A program made the translations under genes and the position numbers. Of a DNA stretch of 64,000 nt, positions 456-58,470 are shown one piece after another (position 1 is the stretch's first letter; every line of letters starts with the position of its first letter). Source of the DNA: a virus; IMG/VR virus record IMGVR_UViG_3300035182_000826, positions 64,001 to 128,000 of that record, one strand, 5' to 3'. The notes below the pieces were generated by a model that had not been told where the DNA came from, did no database searches, and saw nothing but the letters and a program-made list of their open reading frames with translations.

Positions 456-848
456 ATGAATGAACCTAAAAAACTAAAAGCAAAAGACGTTAAGACGGTA
501 CGAAAAGCCTTGCTCGAAAAGCAAGGCTTTTTCTGCGCTATTTGCAAGTTGCCTTGCACAGAGGAGCAGGCTGTTTTAGACCATGATCACACTCACGGGC
601 ACGTCCGTGCTGTGCTGCATCGGGGGTGCAACGCCGCCGAAGGCAAGGTCATGAACACACTGCGTCGATATGGTATCAAAGCGCCAGAGGAGTTCTTGAG
701 GGGACTTCTAGCATACCATGATTTACATTCCACCAATCAATCTGGGTACATACACCCAGCTCATCGAACAGAAGATGAGAAAAAAGAATTGGCTAAGAAG
801 CGGGCTAGACGCAGAAGAACCGCAATAAAGTTGAAATCTAAGGAGTAA
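456..848 (+). CDS. recombination endonuclease VII-family (His-Me finger) nuclease
   Basis: CAIC...LDHDH..GHVRAVLHRGCNAAEG motif; TAAATA at 444. Confidence 0.85.
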   Translation: MNEPKKLKAKDVKTVRKALLEKQGFFCAICKLPCTEEQAVLDHDHTHGHVRAVLHRGCNAAEGKVMNTLRRYGIKAPEEFLRGLLAYHDLHSTNQSGYIHPAHRTEDEKKELAKKRARRRRTAIKLKSKE

Positions 849-5470: not shown

Positions 5471-5640
5471 CTTCTAATTTGACACCTTTTCTTAAGTGCA
5501 GCGCGTCTTAGGCGATAGAGCACACCCTCGGCGACACCGGTGAGGCCCGGCTCACGCCGGACAGTTCAGCCAATAAGTTATGCACGGCACTTAGCCGAGG
5601 CGAGCCGGTGTCGCCTCGTGTCGCCAAGGGTAACAGGCGC
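5471..5640. repeat. non-coding repeat locus 0: one nested-hairpin unit plus flanking module D
   Basis: CTAATTTGACAC..CTTAAGTGCA..GCGATAGAGCAC then CTCGGCGACACCGGTGAGG...CCAATAAGTTATGCA...GTCGCCTCGTGTCGCC; close homologs at 57.94-58.09 kb, 58.29-58.46 kb and (reverse complement) 28.40-28.55 kb. Confidence 0.92.
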
Positions 5641-7140: not shown

Positions 7141-7506
7141 TCACTGGGTGTGTGGCTTACCTTCAGCCAGCCGCTTCTTGGCCTTCTCAGCCTTCAGCTT
7201 TGCCTTCACTGTTTCAAGCTTTTGCTTGTCTTCAGCTGATAGGTTCTTTCCGGCGCGGTTGATGTAAAAGTTCAAGCGCGACATTGCTTGTGCTTCAGAT
7301 TCACTGTTGCTACGAAGCGTCTTCGCGATCTCATCCGCTGACTTTGTGAAAAGCCCTTCTGGTGGTGTCCACTTCGTGTCAACATCAGCGCTCCATTGCT
7401 TTTCAGCGAGGATTTCTCTGGCGCGTTCAGTGATGTACTGCTTTGCTAGCTCAGAGGCGTTACCCTCATTGATGATTACGTTCACTACGTCTTTCAACAT
7501 GGTCAT
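7141..7506 (-). CDS. DUF3175-like small protein, putative head-packaged
   Basis: KQWSADV...EGLFTKSADEIA...AMSRLNFYINRAGKNLS resembles DUF3175; N-terminal IINE and ILAE motifs. Confidence 0.65.
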   Translation of the reverse strand: MTMLKDVVNVIINEGNASELAKQYITERAREILAEKQWSADVDTKWTPPEGLFTKSADEIAKTLRSNSESEAQAMSRLNFYINRAGKNLSAEDKQKLETVKAKLKAEKAKKRLAEGKPHTQ

Positions 7507-9341
7507 TCTCCTTGAGGGTTTTGAGTTGATTGAGGTGTCTGTGATGATTGGGTTGTCTGTGATGATTGGGGTGTTTGTGATGATTGGGGTGTTTGTGATG
7601 ATTGAGGTGTCTGTGATGATTGGGTTGTCTGTGATGATTGGGTTGTCTGCTTTGTGCCAGCTGTGATAATTGATGTCAGCGCCCGAATTTTCTGTAGGAT
7701 TACTCCAGGGCTGGTAAGTGTTTGCTTCTTAGCACGAAGCGCCGTGACCAACTGAGTCTTTTGGTAATTCAAATTCGCGTCTGGCACTCCAAGCACTGAC
7801 AACAATGATGAGATGGCTTGGAAGTATGTATCAGTTCCGAGCCGCACATCTTCAGTGACAGGCTCAATTGATGTTGACGCTGAAATGTTCAATCTGCTTG
7901 CAAGGCGTCTGAGCAGCATTTCCAACGAGGGGTCATCCTCAATTGACAATGCGACACGGCGAAGGAATGTGTTCACGACAGCTGGGCCACCTTGAACAAC
8001 GAGTTCCTCTGGCAAGCCAAGCTTAACAAGGATAGCTTCAAGCAAACGTTGAACAGCATCTCCGCGGCGATGATTAGCTGCTTCACTCAACTCAAACCCT
8101 GCCTCTTTTCCAAGTGCCTTGTACAAATTGATGAACGCTGTCTTCGCTGCCGCGTGCTGGCGAAGGTATTCAGCACCAGCAGTAACAGAATCGGCTGCAG
8201 CAGCAGTGTTGTAGAAGCGTCCAGGAATTCCAACTAATTGGAAGAACGCAGCAATTTGCTTTGCCATAGGCAACTTCAGACGAGAAACAAAGGCACGACC
8301 CTGAGCGTCAAGCTTCATTGACAGCCCGTCGCGAACGCCATCACTCAAGTCATTCGCTTCTCTGATCAATGATTCCTCAAGTTGCGGTTTTACTTCAAAA
8401 GTTGACTTAGCACCAATTACGTTCTTTTGCTTTGTGAGCTCAGCTGCCATGCGCTCAGCTTCTTCAAGTGATGGGTACTTCACAATTTTTCCTTCACGGG
8501 TGTACAGATACTCTTTCAGGCCATTTACGCCGCCAGAGCTCTTGATTTTTAGAACCCATTTCTTTGCGTTCAGCGCAGAGGCCATATGGGCTTTCACATC
8601 ATCCGATAGAGATTCCTTAACTTTAGCAGGCTTTTTTTCATCTGTTGAAGCTTCTTCCTCTCCTTCCTTCTTTTCCTTCTTCTTTTTCTTCTTGTCGTTT
8701 TCGTCTACTTCATCCTCATCTGATTCTTCATCAGTTTCGTCATCAGCTGTGTTAGGATTTGTTTTGTCGTCGTCATTAGGCGTCAACAACTTGTTTTCAA
8801 TAGGTTCCTCTGGGTTTAGTTCAGCGAGATCAGCACCAGAATCAAATGACGCGGCTGGTGAATCCTTGTCGATAAACGAATCAAGTTCAGGAGTGTCAAT
8901 GTTATCTTCATCACCGCTTTGCGCGACGCTCTGATCACCTTGCTCAGTTGGCCAAACCACATCAACAATGTCGAACTGTGTTGCCATCTGATTGATTGCG
9001 CTTTCGATGTCATTGTCCATGCCAAGCATGTTCGACAATGCCTTCTCAAACTCATCAGCTTCTTGCGCGTTCACATAGATTTCGATGTAGTCACCATTGT
9101 CAGTCTTGACAACGAAACCAACAGAATCAACTTGGTCATTCAGCTCAGCCGCACGCTCAAGATAGTTGTTCACATCAGAACCTGTGACGCTACCATCAGT
9201 GCCATGGTTGATCATGTTCCGCATCAATGAGAATCTAACATCAGACTTATTGGAAGCGGTGTCAGTTGAGCCAGCATCAGTTCCATCAGACATCTTGAGT
9301 TTGGTTTGAATGTGGTTTTCTAGTTCAGAAAGTAATTTCAT
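7503..9341 (-). CDS. acidic hypothetical protein, putative internal head protein
   Basis: 612 aa; starts MKLLSELE; several (L/I/V)xE sites; C-terminal QT(T/P)QSS repeats. Confidence 0.75.
   Translation of the reverse strand: MKLLSELENHIQTKLKMSDGTDAGSTDTASNKSDVRFSLMRNMINHGTDGSVTGSDVNNYLERAAELNDQVDSVGFVVKTDNGDYIEIYVNAQEADEFEKALSNMLGMDNDIESAINQMATQFDIVDVVWPTEQGDQSVAQSGDEDNIDTPELDSFIDKDSPAASFDSGADLAELNPEEPIENKLLTPNDDDKTNPNTADDETDEESDEDEVDENDKKKKKKEKKEGEEEASTDEKKPAKVKESLSDDVKAHMASALNAKKWVLKIKSSGGVNGLKEYLYTREGKIVKYPSLEEAERMAAELTKQKNVIGAKSTFEVKPQLEESLIREANDLSDGVRDGLSMKLDAQGRAFVSRLKLPMAKQIAAFFQLVGIPGRFYNTAAAADSVTAGAEYLRQHAAAKTAFINLYKALGKEAGFELSEAANHRRGDAVQRLLEAILVKLGLPEELVVQGGPAVVNTFLRRVALSIEDDPSLEMLLRRLASRLNISASTSIEPVTEDVRLGTDTYFQAISSLLSVLGVPDANLNYQKTQLVTALRAKKQTLTSPGVILQKIRALTSIITAGTKQTTQSSQTTQSSQTPQSSQTPQSSQTPQSSQTTQSSQTPQSTQNPQGE
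7520..7650 (-). repeat. 18-bp coding tandem repeat, QT(T/P)QSS about 6-7 copies
   Basis: GTGATGATTG(G/A)G... units visible on the + strand. Confidence 0.9.
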
Positions 9342-11605
9342 TTTTTATCCTTGCGTGGATCTGGGTACTTGAGCAACATACGGTGAATGTTTGGGTTTCT
9401 CTTCCGTTTGATGATCTTGGAATTACCAAGGCGCTGTGGAAAAGTTGCGATGTTCGCGCTGGTGGTCATTGACGATGTGTTCATAGGCGCAGCATTTGAG
9501 GTGCTTGGGTCAACACCTGCGAAAGGCGCATCATCTTCCTCAGCGAGCTTTACCACATCACGCAAAAGACCTTCTTTGAGTGCCATTTGATTTTCTCCTG
9601 CGGTTGAGGCATTTAGCAACACGTTCTGCTGAATCACCTTAAACCGTCTGAATAGCTGACTGTTCCCGGCGTACTGCAGACCTAGCATGAACACCAAGTT
9701 CATTGCAGTGACTTTGTCTTCGAATGAAAGCTCAGCCCAATGTGGAACAAGACTGATCAACATATTTAGCTTTTGGTTTCCAATCCCAGACAGTCTCCAG
9801 AATCGATCTAGCATGAACTGATGATTCTTCCAATTAATGGAAACTTGCTTATCCCATGATAGCTCCAAGTGCATACGTCTCCAGAGAATGTCATTCACCT
9901 GAGAAGTCGCTCTCTTGATGATTCTCTTGGCATCCATCGACAATCCAATCTTTGGATCATTGAAATGCCAGATTGCGTAACCCCAGTGGTTCAACTCACT
10001 CATACCAACATCCCACTTCTTAAGATTTGAGAGATTATGGTTCCGCAGCTTTCTCATGCCAATGATGTCATGCTCTTGAATAATGATCATCGAAATGAAT
10101 ACGATTGTGAGGTACGTGCTGATCATCTGAACGCCGTCTTTGCCAGCGAAATCAGCGATTGCGATGTCATTTCTGAGAGTGTTCTTCTTGTGCGTTTTCT
10201 TCTTTGCTTCAGTAAGGCTTTCAAGTGCAAGCGCGTATCCACCAAAGATGACTGCAGCCAATTGAGCTGTGGTGGCCGTTTTTGAAATCTGGTCCCTTAA
10301 CCGTTGAACGCTCTTCTTTGCCTCAGCAAAGATTGTGAGTGTTCTTGCTATCACGTCCTTGCTCAGTGAGACCTCTGTGCCGTCAGAAAGCTTCTTCTTC
10401 AGTGTGCTGGATTTGCTCTTGAACTCAGCCAAGAGGTTTTCAATGTCAAGTCTAGCACGCTCTACGATTGCTAACGCATGCTTCTTTGTGGCTATGATGT
10501 CATTAGCAGTTCTTGACGCATCGGCGAACTGCTGAATAGTTCTGGCTGGAGTGTCACCTTTGAATTGTTCAAGGGCCTTCTTGGCATTGGCTGGCTTCGC
10601 CAGCTCACGGTTTCCAAACAGCTCAGCAAGCTTGATTCGCATTTCACCAATGATGCCACCGCGATCAATAAGATCAGCGTTCTCATCCGTGGTGGTCAGC
10701 CCTCCCTGAACCATGTTCCGATAGTACTGATTGAACTTGTTCATCTCAAGGAAGACACCCTTGTCCACAACCTTGATCTGCTCTCCATTTTCATCGCGTA
10801 GAACATACCCCTCAATAGGGCCTTTGCTGATCGAGTTTGGTTTTTTGGCGTTCAGTGCCTTTAGGAGTTCATCCTTGATTGGCAGTTTGTACTCTTCAAG
10901 AATCTGTCCAATCAATGCTTCTCTGAATTCCTTGAAGGCGTTCCGGCTCTCCTTAGGAATTTTGTTCAGTGATATGGTGAGCGTTTCACCATTTGTCATG
11001 CCCTGCTCATTTTGTGAATTCAGGAACTTTTGGAATTTGGACAGCAAGGTGTCATTGACCTTGATCTTACTTGCGTCAAGTTCAGCTGGTTCAATGAACT
11101 TGACGTCAAGATCCTTATCAACCACCTGAACTTCCTCTCCATCTGAGCTCTCAATTGCTTGAATTGACACGCTTACCTGGCGACCAGTCAACTTTGTCTT
11201 GAGCCTGTCAAAGTTCTCAGCGCTACCTTCAACTGGGCGCAGGAGGGCGACGTAGGACACCGGTTCCACTGAGTATGAAACACTATTAGGCTGTTCACCG
11301 TACAACACCTCGGCCTCACCGGTGTCGCCAGGGGATAGTGTCTCCAACACAATGTCCTTCACTTTTTCAAGAGCGGCATGGGCGGCCCTGAATTGATTGA
11401 AGTCACTAACTGGTGCCCAATCATCTGGACTGTACATCTTCTTGGCGCCATTTCTCTTGCCTTCACGTGACGTGAAGAATTGCCCTTCTTGATCAACGCC
11501 AAACCAGAGTTGAGCGCCATCAAGCTTCTCCTGAATCTGCATCGAGGAGATTTTCTTCACAAGGCTGATGAACTGTTCTGGCTTTAGGTCTTCAATGTGA
11601 ATCAT
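9338..11605 (-). CDS. ligase-fold nucleotidyltransferase-domain protein (DUF6267-like) with long C-terminal region
   Basis: IHIEDL, EKLDG (motif I KxDG), EVLY, IEGYVL, KVVDK; reverse TAAATA at 11626. Confidence 0.6.
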   Translation of the reverse strand: MIHIEDLKPEQFISLVKKISSMQIQEKLDGAQLWFGVDQEGQFFTSREGKRNGAKKMYSPDDWAPVSDFNQFRAAHAALEKVKDIVLETLSPGDTGEAEVLYGEQPNSVSYSVEPVSYVALLRPVEGSAENFDRLKTKLTGRQVSVSIQAIESSDGEEVQVVDKDLDVKFIEPAELDASKIKVNDTLLSKFQKFLNSQNEQGMTNGETLTISLNKIPKESRNAFKEFREALIGQILEEYKLPIKDELLKALNAKKPNSISKGPIEGYVLRDENGEQIKVVDKGVFLEMNKFNQYYRNMVQGGLTTTDENADLIDRGGIIGEMRIKLAELFGNRELAKPANAKKALEQFKGDTPARTIQQFADASRTANDIIATKKHALAIVERARLDIENLLAEFKSKSSTLKKKLSDGTEVSLSKDVIARTLTIFAEAKKSVQRLRDQISKTATTAQLAAVIFGGYALALESLTEAKKKTHKKNTLRNDIAIADFAGKDGVQMISTYLTIVFISMIIIQEHDIIGMRKLRNHNLSNLKKWDVGMSELNHWGYAIWHFNDPKIGLSMDAKRIIKRATSQVNDILWRRMHLELSWDKQVSINWKNHQFMLDRFWRLSGIGNQKLNMLISLVPHWAELSFEDKVTAMNLVFMLGLQYAGNSQLFRRFKVIQQNVLLNASTAGENQMALKEGLLRDVVKLAEEDDAPFAGVDPSTSNAAPMNTSSMTTSANIATFPQRLGNSKIIKRKRNPNIHRMLLKYPDPRKDKK

Positions 11606-28364: not shown

Positions 28365-29690
28365 TGCGCATTAGCCGCGCGGGTTCAACGCGGGCCGGCG
28401 ACACGAGGCGACGCCGGCTCACCTCGACTAAGTGCTGTGCATAACTTATTGCCCGCACTGTCCGGTGTGAGCCGGACCTCACCGGTGTCGCCGAGGTGGT
28501 GCTCTATCGCTTAAGGCGAGCTGCACTTAAGCAAAGGTGTCAAATTAGGTGGTGTTCTTTGTGGTAAGGTGTTCTTTGTTTGTGTGCAGTGTGCGCAGAG
28601 CGCATTAGCCGACGAATAGCGGGTTCAATGGATTCTTCAATGGATTCTTCAATGGATTCTTCATTGGAGAGAGGTGATCAGTTCTTCATTGGAGTCAGTC
28701 ATAGTCGCTCTCACAGCGCGTGCTCATAGAGCGCATTAGCCGACGAATAGCGGGTTCAACGGGTTCGTAGGTGACCAGTTCTTCAGGTTCTTCATTGGAG
28801 TGAGGGTGGTGCTCTTAGTGGTGAGGCGTACACAGAGCGCATTAGCCGACGAATAGCGGGTTCAATGGGTTCAATGGGTTCAATGGGTTCAATGGATTCA
28901 ATGGATTCAATGGATTCAATGGATTCAATGGATTCAATGGATTCAATGGATTCAATGGATTCAATGGATTCAATGGATTCAATGGATTCAATGGATTCAA
29001 TGGATTCAATGGATTCTTCATTGGAGTAGGTGGTCAGTTCTTCAGGTTCTTCATTGGAGTAGGTGGTGTTCTTTGTGTTTGTGTGTGGTGCTCATAGAGC
29101 GCATTAGCCGACGAATAGCGGGTTCAATATCATCCGGCGACACGAGGCGACGCCGGCTCACACCGGACAGTACAGCCAATAAGTTATGCATAGCACATAG
29201 CCGGTGTGAGCCGGACCTCACCGGTGTCGCCGAGGCTGTGCTCTATCGCTTATGGCGAACTGCACTTAAGAAATGTGTCAAATTAGGTGGTGTGCTCACA
29301 GTGCGCGCTCATAGAGCGCATTAGCCGACGAATAGCGGGTTCAATGGATTCTTCATTGGAGTAGATGATCAGTTCTTCATTGGAGTGGGGGTCAGTTTTT
29401 GTGGTGAGGCGTTCACAGAGCGCATTAGCCGACAGATAGCGGGTTCAATGGATTCTTCAACAAGTTCTTCATTGGAGTGGGTGGTCAGTTGCTCACAGTG
29501 CAGTGTGCGCAGAGCGCATTAGCCGACGAATAGCGGGTTCAATGGATTCTTCACGCAGTGTGTACACAGAGCGCATTAGCCGAGCACCACCTCGGCGACA
29601 CGAGGCGACGCCGGCTCACCCCGTATTAGCGACTCAATAAGTTATGCACCACATAGGCCCGGCAATTGCCGGGCCACCACCGGCAAAACC
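28365..29690. repeat. composite non-coding repeat locus 1
   Basis: 32-mer AGAGCGCATTAGCCGACGAATAGCGGGTTCAA at 28597, 28728, 28834, 29096, 29313, 29417 (variant), 29511 plus partials; TTCTTCATTGGAG modules; hairpin units at 28395-28496, 29134-29235 and partial at 29590. Confidence 0.95.
28861..29013 (+). repeat. 9-bp tandem repeat x17
   Basis: 3x TTCAATGGG then 14x TTCAATGGA, growing out of the 3' end of a 32-mer. Confidence 0.95.
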
Positions 29691-44991: not shown

Positions 44992-45025
44992 CGCGTGGTG
45001 AATACAAAAAGAGCGACACGAAATG

Positions 45026-45053
45026 ACACGAGGGGCCCTAGGGCCCCTCGTGT
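45026..45053. terminator. palindromic hairpin / terminator
   Basis: ACACGAGGGGCCC-TA-GGGCCCCTCGTGT. Confidence 0.65.
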
Positions 45054-45086
45054 GTTATGCTCTGCAGTTTATTTGTTCGGTGCGCA

Positions 45087-45118
45087 CTCGGCCTCACCGG
45101 TGTCGCCGAGGCTGTGCT
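45087..45118. repeat. isolated arm of the hairpin repeat
   Basis: CCTCACCGGTGTCGCCGAGGCTGTGCT, as at about 29216-29242. Confidence 0.85.
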
Positions 45119-48959: not shown

Positions 48960-50504
48960 ATGGCTAGAAATCCAAACTTGAAAAGAGCGCACGACACGTG
49001 CGAATACGACCTTGAAAAGGTGCAAGAGTTACAGAAGTGCACACAAGACCCAATCTACTTCATGACGAAGTACGTCAAGGTTCAGCACCCTACTAAGGGT
49101 GCTGTTCCATTTGATCTGTACGAGTATCAGATAGAAATGGTTCGTGCAATTCATGAAAACAAAGACACATTGCTATTGTGTTCACGCCAGATGGGTAAAA
49201 CAACCGTGGCGGCAATGTACATTCTTTGGTTCGCGCTGTTCCACAAGGCAAAGCGCTGTGTGATTGCTTCTAAGGCAATGTCACATGCAGTTGAAATTCA
49301 ATCACGTATCAAGTTCGCTTATGAAGAACTACCAATGTGGTTGAAAGCTGGTTGCACGTTCTACAATCGCACGTCAATTGAATTTGACAACAAATCAGTC
49401 ATCATTTGTGAAGCAACGTCTGATAAAACTGGTCGTGGTAGCTCTCCAGCTATCATCTTCCTAGACGAAATTGCGTTCATTCCACGCCGCATTCAGGATG
49501 AAATGTGGGGGTCACTGACACCTGCACTCTCAACTGGTGGTAAGTTCATCATTTCATCGACTCCAAATGGCGACTCAGATCTGTTTGCTCAGTTATGGCG
49601 TGCTGCAAATTCGAAACAGAACAACTTTGTTCCATTGAGATTCTTGTGGTGGCAACACCCGGATCGCGGAGAAGCGTACTACAAGGAAATGGTTGGCAAG
49701 CTTGGTGAGCTTCGCGCGCGTCAAGAGCTAGACTGTGAGTTCTTGTCAAGTGACGCACTGTTGGTTTCCTCAATTGTTCTACAAAGTCTCCGTTGGAAGC
49801 CACCAATCTTCGCGTCAATGGGTTTCAAGTTCTGGTGGCCTGAAGAGCTGCTATGCGGTCCTAACAACATCTTCATGGTGGCAATGGATCCAGCGTCAGG
49901 AACTGGCAAAGACTTCTCCGTGATTGAGATTTTCGAGTTCAACACCATGGAGCAGGTTGGAGAATTCAGATCGAACGAAATCAACATTCCATTGCTATAC
50001 GCGAAGCTACAGTGGGTATTGAAGTTCTTAGCAAGAAAGACTGTTGGCGGTAGTGCTGAGATTCTGTGGACCTTTGAACGCAACGGGCTTGGTGAGGCAA
50101 TTGCAGCTCTGTACTGCAACGATGACAAGCGTGTTGACGAGGCTGAGTTGCTAAGTGATCACCCAATGAAGTTTGGTTTGTACACAACCGGCAAACAGAA
50201 GGTGCTCTCATGTCTGCAGCTAAAAACGCTTGTTGAGAAGACAACAAGTGGCTTTAAACTGAACTCAGAGGACTTGATCGCAGAGCTCAAGGAATTCGTT
50301 TCAAAGGGTGGTGGGTACGAAGCAAAGTCTGGTGCAACTGACGACTGCGTCATGGCGACGGTTGGTATCACTCGCCTGTTGAAGCGGCTAAGTGAGTACA
50401 ACGACAAGGCGTTCAGAACAGTGAACGAGTATCTTGATCCGGAACAGGATCAACTTGTTCCGATGGATGAGTCTAGCTTGCCAGTTCCATTCTCAATATC
50501 CTGA
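48960..50504 (+). CDS. terL: terminase large subunit (T4 gp17-like)
   Basis: SRQMGKTT, FLDEIAF, SSTPNG, MDPASGTGKD, DDCVMA. Confidence 0.96.
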   Translation: MARNPNLKRAHDTCEYDLEKVQELQKCTQDPIYFMTKYVKVQHPTKGAVPFDLYEYQIEMVRAIHENKDTLLLCSRQMGKTTVAAMYILWFALFHKAKRCVIASKAMSHAVEIQSRIKFAYEELPMWLKAGCTFYNRTSIEFDNKSVIICEATSDKTGRGSSPAIIFLDEIAFIPRRIQDEMWGSLTPALSTGGKFIISSTPNGDSDLFAQLWRAANSKQNNFVPLRFLWWQHPDRGEAYYKEMVGKLGELRARQELDCEFLSSDALLVSSIVLQSLRWKPPIFASMGFKFWWPEELLCGPNNIFMVAMDPASGTGKDFSVIEIFEFNTMEQVGEFRSNEINIPLLYAKLQWVLKFLARKTVGGSAEILWTFERNGLGEAIAALYCNDDKRVDEAELLSDHPMKFGLYTTGKQKVLSCLQLKTLVEKTTSGFKLNSEDLIAELKEFVSKGGGYEAKSGATDDCVMATVGITRLLKRLSEYNDKAFRTVNEYLDPEQDQLVPMDESSLPVPFSIS

Positions 50505-57523: not shown

Positions 57524-58470
57524 GCCTCGGCGACACCGGTGAGGCCCGGCTCACACAGGCTCGCCAAGACATATATCTTTATTGGCCACTATTTTTAAGC
57601 GCACCGGCGTCGCCTCGTGTCGCCGGCTCACGTTGAACCCGCTATTCGTCGGCTAATGCGCTCTGTGTGCGCCTCACCACTATGAACACCACCTCACTCC
57701 AATGAGAACCTGAAGAACTGGTCACCTCGCTCCAATGAAGAACTTGTTGGAGAATCCGTTGAACCCGCTATCTGTCGGCTAATGCGCTCTATGGGCGCTC
57801 ACGCCTCACTTAAACTTTTTGCTAATGATAATGTCAGCTCTTGAAGGTCCTTGACCGTGTCATAGAACCCATTGAACCCGCTATTCGTCGGCTAATGCGC
57901 TCTATGAGCGCACTGTGCACCTCACACAAAGAGCCCCTTCTAATTTGGCGCCTTTCTTAAGTGCAGTTCGCCATAAGCGATAGAGCACCACCTCGGCGAC
58001 ACCGGTGAGGTCCGGCTCACACCGGACCTCACCACCAATAAGTTATGCACAGCACTTGGCCGGTGTGAGCCGGCGTCGCCTCGTGTCGCCGGCTCACGTT
58101 GAACCCGCTATTCGTCGGCTAATGCGCTCTGTGTACGCACACTGTGAGCGACTATGACCAATGAAAACTGATCACCTGCTCCAATGAAGAACTTGTTGGA
58201 GAACTTGTTGGAGAACTTGTTGGAGAGCCCATTGAACCTGCTATTCGTCGGCTAATGCGCTCTGTGTGCGCCTCACCACTAAGAACACTCTTCTAATTTG
58301 ACACTTTCTTAAGTGCGGCACAAATGGCAGTTCGCCATAAGCAATGAGCACAGCCTCGGCGACACCGGTGAGGTCCGGTGTGAGCCGGACCTCACCGCCA
58401 ATAAGTTATGCACAGCACTTGGCCGGTGTGAGCCGGCGTCGCCTCGTGTCGCCGAGGGTGACAGGCGTCA
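57524..58470. repeat. composite non-coding repeat locus 2 (inverted relative to locus 1)
   Basis: Reverse-complement 32-mers at 57633, 57759, 57872, 58099, 58232; hairpin units at about 57525-57626, 57991-58092, 58334-58456; GAGAACTTGTTG about x3. Confidence 0.95.

Follow-up and report, generated by a model that had tools for sequence, protein, structure and literature searches.

The 96-bp quasi-palindromic units scattered through this phage genome occur as flip and flop isomers at two scales nested in one element (6 nt within 34 nt), and these isomers are probably micro-inversions of the spacer between short inverted repeats, generated via template switching, a mechanism that we infer from comparison of the copies. 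Each locus appears to be fixed, or nearly so, in one orientation. Considered as a mechanism, this is most likely an event of a known kind, namely template switching or short-repeat recombination within a hairpin cassette. The window analysed here is the whole stretch of 64,000 nucleotides, bases 64001-128000 of a 161-kb IMG/VR record whose completeness is estimated at 45%; positions are those of the window unless given as genome positions.

Structure and distribution of the hairpin units

A search with arm and core motifs located 22 full or partial units in the 161-kb record, 11 of them complete. A complete unit measures 96 bp and is bounded by the termini GGCGACAC and GTGTCGCC. Reading inwards from GGCGACAC, there follow a 9-nt bubble segment, a 14-nt inner repeat, the 34-nt centre containing CAATAAGTTATGCA, the reversed inner repeat and the other bubble, before GTGTCGCC is reached. 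The bubble segment distinguishes the arms, being CGGTGAGGT in arm X and GAGGCGACG in arm Y, and copies were oriented by these asymmetric arms together with two flanking modules. Arm X always adjoins a 44-nt module, F (TTGACAC...GATAGAGCAC), and arm Y' always adjoins a 32-mer, M (GTTGAACCCGC...GCTAATGCGCTCT); the cassette order is thus module F, arm X, inner repeat, 34-nt centre, inner repeat, arm Y' and M. An example of F on the X side is found at 28499..28543 (minus strand), with further window copies at 5479, 29238, 57951 and 58327, and an example of M on the Y' side at 29096..29127 (minus strand).

Re-reading of the sequence at 29134-29235 reproduced the hairpin as the sequence-only reading had described it. 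In this unit the inner arm CCGGCTCACACCGG (29153..29166), which forms one boundary of the inverted core discussed below, and its partner (29201..29214) were recovered by an inverted-repeat search as 100% complementary and 34 nt apart, nested within 9-nt outer arms that are 80 nt apart. With up to one mismatch allowed, the window contains 10 matches to the 14-mer where 0.02 would be expected, and 11 to the 15-nt core motif where the expectation is 1.6.

The units are found at no fewer than seven internal intergenic loci, in both genomic orientations. Their clusters are 0.4-2 kb long and ORF-less, built of F, hairpin and then M in up to three copies, with short tandem repeats between them; the arrays of 1-2 kb hold no credible ORFs, and neither the Rfam nor the tRNA scan gave a hit in the window. 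Partial copies included, M occurs 13 times in the window and 30 times in the 161-kb record, and there are 11 copies in the related phage G001 (vide infra), all of them intergenic; M arrays occupy 28597-29583 and 57632-58263 of the window. The tandem arrays between M modules (28861-29016, 28624-28668 and 58188-58226) consist of the 9-mer TTCAATGGA repeated 17 times and of 12-mers repeated three to four times.

Unit interiors take two forms, a palindrome with an AT-rich centre or a GC terminator hairpin. The second form is that of four units in G001 (10675-10770, 123590-123685, 278080-278175 and 306015-306110), which have the same two termini, a length of exactly 96 bp and a GC-rich terminator-like hairpin as interior. 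Terminator-type units are also present in this phage, for example at 45012..45107 (minus strand), where an X arm, a GC hairpin and a degenerate GTGTCGC terminus again span 96 bp, a form that G001 shares. The constancy of the 96-bp length across two phages, with a replaceable interior, suggests that the distance between the two termini is constrained.

Arm X is also matched exactly over 16 nt at 11314-11329 (minus strand), inside a conserved gene, where the 16-mer encodes GDTGE. An in-frame mobile insertion was considered here and rejected, as all relatives have a corresponding segment (GDTVE, GQMVE or GSIVE); the match may be coincidental or may stem from a short patch of conversion.

The phage and its relatives

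Domain searches identified a T4-type portal, a T4-type major capsid protein and a DnaB-like helicase among the proteins encoded in the window, and the gene content also includes a tail sheath alongside a T4-type large terminase (48960..50504, plus strand; PF03237, E 1.5e-11). The jumbo phages Ralstonia RsoM2USA and Xanthomonas XacN1/Xoo-sp13 have capsid proteins approximately 50% identical to the one encoded here. This kinship and the T4-type gene set therefore indicate an uncultured T4-like jumbo myovirus of about 340 kb.

A megablast search against isolate phages returned no close relative, IMG/VR, scanned for exact matches to arm X and to the 32-mer, gave lone chance matches or none, and a scan with a flanking protein returned no relatives. 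A scan with the Y' terminus motif led to three related phages, G001 (343 kb, complete), G002 (336 kb, matched also by a 336-kb metagenome contig) and G003 (152 kb). Matches in L048, L050, L051 and a Zoogloea MAG (L052) fall in high-GC coding sequence and were set aside as chance. Genes of the three relatives are about 68% identical to those of this phage at the nucleotide level, with GC contents of 45% to 57%. At this identity the relatives are too distant for orientation to be compared at the same locus, and the polarity of the inversions accordingly rests on a 9:2 majority and on one-armed copies.

Several larger features of these genomes involve the hairpin clusters. The G002 contig starts and ends within one palindromic GC hairpin of a terminator-type unit, which indicates that the assembly broke or closed on the palindrome. 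Hairpin clusters 1 and 2 enclose a 26-kb block, ahead of the window at genome 24.6-50.1 kb, that is inverted relative to G001 and G002, as is a 4.5-kb block adjoining the unit at 5530 (window 7141-11605); several of the synteny break points, not all, fall at hairpin clusters. Crossover between the arms of two units, giving a large inversion, was rejected as the source of the flopped cores by reasoning, since it predicts X..X' and Y..Y' units or unchanged units and never a lone flipped core.

Inversion of the 34-bp centre

The 34-bp centre lies one way round in 9 of the 11 complete units and as its reverse complement in the other two, which are found at 29136-29231 and at genome 50388-50483, 13.6 kb before the window. 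The flopped cores are identical to the flip cores at 30/34 positions after reverse complementing. In these units the 96-bp length, the arms and both the F and M flanks are unaltered, and the break points of the core inversion lie inside perfect 14-nt inverted repeats. For the window copy (29136..29231, minus strand), where the centre at 29167-29200 is inverted relative to arms and flanks, this bears out what had been read from the letters alone, namely a core inverted between the 14-bp inner repeats.

The shared core orientation that had been proposed for four other copies was also recovered when arms and flanks were used as the reference. These are full flip units at 5530..5625 (plus strand; without the downstream 32-mer module), 28397..28492 (e11, minus strand; right inner arm degenerate), 57995..58090 (plus strand) and 58358..58453 (e17, plus strand); the last had been placed at 58334, and its orientation stands while its start is corrected to 58358. 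Two more copies had been counted as inverted and are not retained as such. The copy reported at 29590 (29594..29689, plus strand) is one-armed, with the end of the upstream flank, a Y arm and the core followed by a GC terminator-like hairpin in place of the other half, and its core has the usual orientation relative to the upstream flank. The copy reported at 57525 (57529..57624, plus strand) has both arms and a diverged centre of no callable orientation, the match to the reversed core lying at the 95th percentile of shuffles and so being indistinguishable from chance.

All one-armed copies have the majority core polarity, which, together with the 2/11 proportion of flopped units, points to derived, sporadic events. 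The flopped unit e08 has two mismatches in one inner arm, and this, with the 9:2 ratio, argues for sporadic and largely fixed events over a free equilibrium. A contrary reading is that both orientations are mixed at each locus in the population, the 14-nt arms recombining often in the hyper-recombinogenic T4-type replication cycle, perhaps helped by cruciform extrusion and endonuclease VII, with the assembly showing the majority form. The events do look recurrent, the phage encodes an endonuclease VII, the single-stranded hairpins are very stable, with z-scores of -6 to -7, and sustained short-inverted-repeat heteroplasmy is documented in plastomes (PMC12928735). However, the contig shows a single orientation per locus, nine of eleven units agree where about half would be expected at free equilibrium, and the e08 mismatches are what an old fixed event would leave. 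It can also be reasoned that cruciform resolution would yield hairpin-capped breaks or deletion, not inversion. Continuing flip-flop is thus considered unlikely.

The two orientations could in principle also be chimeras produced during assembly or library construction among repeated palindromic copies. The data are from a metagenome assembly, the units are both repeated and palindromic, and the G002 contig breaks within such a hairpin. However, the flopped copies carry private substitutions and have distinct flanks. In addition, the two paths share only 14 nt, less than usual assembler k-mers, so that words joining arm X to the reversed core must exist in the reads. The probability of an artefact is accordingly put at next to nothing.

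In either orientation a central 14-nt motif is nearly invariant, and the adjoining loop positions vary. The conserved centre motif, of ATAAG..GCAC type, is like a motif that precedes hairpins elsewhere in the phage clade. Three segments look alike, namely the 3' end of F, ATAAGCGATAGAGCAC (28499-28543), the central motif of the unit, ATAAGTTATGCAC (for example at 29176-29195), and a pre-terminator segment of G001, ATAGAGCACAACA; each lies a few bases 5' of a strong hairpin. The near-invariance of the 14-nt motif could stem from recent amplification with gene conversion or from function, and it hints at a role for which orientation might count.

Inversion of the 6-nt loop and templated changes

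The inner loop of 6 nt reads CTCACA in most units and TGTGAG in two, one being the unit at genome 22941 and the other the copy with its loop at 58379-58384. The pair of loops on which the smaller of the two scales had originally been proposed was confirmed at 58016-58021 (CTCACA, on the 12-nt local stem of the unit at 57995..58090) and at 58379-58384 (TGTGAG, in e17, whose core as a whole is flip). The inverted loop sits between palindromic CCGG boxes in a stem of 12-13 nt. The bases immediately next to the loop are unlike on both sides in the two loop-inverted units, and unit e17 differs from the non-inverted e22 by the 6-nt inversion, the 34-bp core being identical in both, so the loop inversion is probably recurrent. 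In e17 it leaves the two 14-mers as direct repeats, and the fold predicted for a single strand of this unit has two local hairpins inside the outer stem, as opposed to one long hairpin in the unit at 57995-58090.

Two further kinds of multi-base change lengthen stems. In five units, 8-10 nt beside the inner repeat are replaced by a ACCTCACC variant that complements, base for base, the segment at the mirrored place in the adjacent arm, giving a 12-nt perfect stem. A flank variant, GGCTCAC, extends a stem from 7 to 11 nt. All four types of multi-base difference (34-nt centre, 6-nt loop, ACCTCACC and GGCTCAC) are apparently explained by reverse-complement copying within the same unit. Inversion events are approximately as numerous as arm point changes; the rate is therefore high, perhaps with help from an enzyme.

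Every combination of left and right core variants is represented, a pattern indicative of gene conversion, or segment exchange, between copies. It is conceivable that the flopped centres themselves were copied in this way from an oppositely oriented unit, with the ends of the conversion tract in the inner repeats, and a double crossover or conversion with such a copy gives the same product as template switching. Units do occur in both genomic orientations, the mosaic cores show that copies exchange segments, and the e08 centre, read on the genome plus strand, matches e11, which has the opposite orientation, over 24 nt without a difference. However, this route requires both tract ends to fall in 14-nt stretches of homology that flank 34 nt lacking it, and it leaves the 6-nt loop inversions and the self-templated stem extensions unexplained, both of which template switching covers. 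Ectopic conversion is judged improbable as the source of the flops.

In predicted folds, full units form very stable single-strand hairpins, with z-scores of -3.5 to -7.4. The X/Y' bubble can form G.T wobble pairs on one strand only, and the F-to-M strand has a mean advantage of 2.9 kcal/mol over 12 units, being the favoured strand in eight of them. This asymmetry was too weak for the unit to be retained as an RNA element.

A probable template-switching mechanism

Under the template-switching reading, a nascent strand made in replication or in recombination-dependent synthesis would come off its template within one arm and anneal again, at the other arm, to the same sequence on either the complementary or the nascent strand. 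The spacer would then be copied backwards before a switch back in the second arm; alternatively, strand exchange within an extruded stem could give the same product. Switch points only a few bases apart would produce the 6-nt loop inversion between the CCGG boxes, and the same process could write the arm-complementary patches that lengthen stems, with copies additionally swapping segments by gene conversion. No dedicated enzyme would be needed, and because the stems are kept, such changes would be tolerated.

Template switching between short inverted repeats homogenises arms and inverts spacers, reversibly and recurrently (PMC8604942), and yields loop inversions and stem extensions in hairpins (PMC8794818). 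The units resemble the products of Ripley-type quasipalindrome mutagenesis and template-switch mutations (PMC8604942, PMC8794818, PMC7202029) in their perfect short arms and exact, length-preserving spacer reversal, and also in their arm-templated multi-base patches, stem extensions, recurrence and reversibility. They differ from those reports in that the spacer is 34 nt where 2-8 nt is typical, and in that paralogous copies of a phage repeat are compared, not orthologues, with polarity taken from the majority and from one-armed copies.

Comparable inversions occur in chloroplasts, where those of 5-50 bp between repeats of 11-24 bp are termed flip-flop, as summarised in PMC12928735. These minute hairpin inversions likewise occupy intergenic stem-loops, and the combination of 34 bp with 14-bp repeats falls in their size class. 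The present case differs in that the host molecule is a virulent phage and not an organelle, the hairpin is a dispersed multi-copy cassette, and a 6-nt inversion is nested within one of 34 nt.

Terminal hairpins and recombinases

An asymmetric hairpin that exists in flip and flop isomers is the classical mark of hairpin-primed replication or of telomere-type resolution in the style of parvoviruses, poxviruses or protelomerases, and the sequence-only reading had preferred extrusion followed by nicking, resolution or priming, naming template switching in palindromes as another source of such loops. Template switching fits everything seen; the preferred part of that proposal was unsupported by any of the tests. 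The units share with parvovirus and poxvirus termini an asymmetric hairpin in two reverse-complement isomers. In those viruses, however, the whole terminal hairpin flips via nicking, hairpin transfer or resolution, whereas here internal sub-segments flip and the enzyme was not found; all 11 full units keep the outer bubble in one orientation with respect to the flanks, although terminal resolution would flip the entire hairpin.

The sites are also internal and clustered at seven or more loci. No unit lies at the record's own ends, which may differ from the virion ends, and the 127-bp end repeat of G001 is away from any unit. No protelomerase (ResT/TelK domain) was detected in this record (estimated 45% complete) or in G001-G003, two of which are complete. 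The portal, capsid and large terminase are T4-type, and a terminase of this type argues for headful packaging over hairpin telomeres. The structure-specific nuclease that had been proposed to act at the hairpins is real, in that the gene at 456..848 (plus strand) encodes an endonuclease VII homologue (PF02945, E 4e-14). T4-like phages carry endonuclease VII as a general debranching enzyme, and because it is generic in this group its presence says nothing specific on these sites. Internal units, a T4-type terminase and the lack of a detectable protelomerase or recombinase together leave hairpin-primed replication or telomere-type resolution without support, and it is rated extremely unlikely.

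Programmed inversion by a site-specific invertase would likewise place a segment between inverted repeats in two orientations, as in the fimS, Hin and Gin invertons, and also in its favour the centre carries a conserved motif resembling the one that precedes hairpins elsewhere in these phages. However, serine (PF00239) and tyrosine (PF00589) recombinases are absent from this record and from G001-G003, with control genomes positive, so that, unlike in fimS or Hin/Gin, an invertase gene was not found in any of the four genomes. To our knowledge, invertible segments are all far longer than 34 bp, and a segment of this length is an order of magnitude too short. There is hardly any probability left for an invertase. 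The Y1 transposase (PF01797) is also absent from the record and its relatives, in a search confined to the Y1 type among HUH and Rep families. A REP/RAYT, IS200/IS605-type or MITE element was considered and rejected, given the absence of PF01797 and flanks that are conserved modules and not target-site duplications.

Comparison with other phage cassettes

The promoter-early stem-loop (PeSL) cassettes of T4-type phages (PMC2839356) invite comparison. Like them, the present elements combine an intergenic stem-loop of about 100 bp with a promoter-like block, and are dispersed, recombinogenic and located in rearranged regions. Unlike PeSLs, the arrays here are ORF-less and without flanking small ORFans, and the loop flipping of the present units has no counterpart in the available text of that account.

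The promoter-like block is M. An orthologous giant gene of about 2900 codons is preceded, at a distance of 71-84 nt, by a hairpin with M both in this phage (genome 24486) and in G001 (75498). The TTGAAC- and TAATGC-like boxes of M are separated by a 15-nt spacer here and a 17-nt spacer in G001, which indicates that M is not a consistent sigma-70 promoter, and a consensus promoter scan found no excess. With this box spacing, no promoter excess and no flanked ORFans, the 96-bp cassette does not appear to fit the PeSL definition. Judged by its sequence, the unit is a conserved intergenic punctuation cassette, nearest in kind to the PeSL cassettes.

Implications

A more ambitious interpretation is that the 34-bp centre is a directional signal that flips appreciably in every infection without a recombinase, making the cassettes enzyme-free, replication-driven switches. 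This is regarded as very improbable. If it were true, the cassettes would alter local transcription or DNA structure, and the 6-nt flip would switch a unit from a single long hairpin to two short hairpins and back.

As a mutational phenomenon, the flips are ordinary. What this phage provides is a clean, multi-copy natural example in which template-switch inversions are nested (6 nt in 34 nt) and accompanied by templated stem extensions, with the cassettes as hot spots of non-point mutation. The case is also a caution that flip/flop isomers are not in themselves evidence for hairpin telomeres. The cassette family, with its fixed termini, constant 96-bp length and conserved 32-mer, may be the better lead for gene regulation or replication in jumbo phages.
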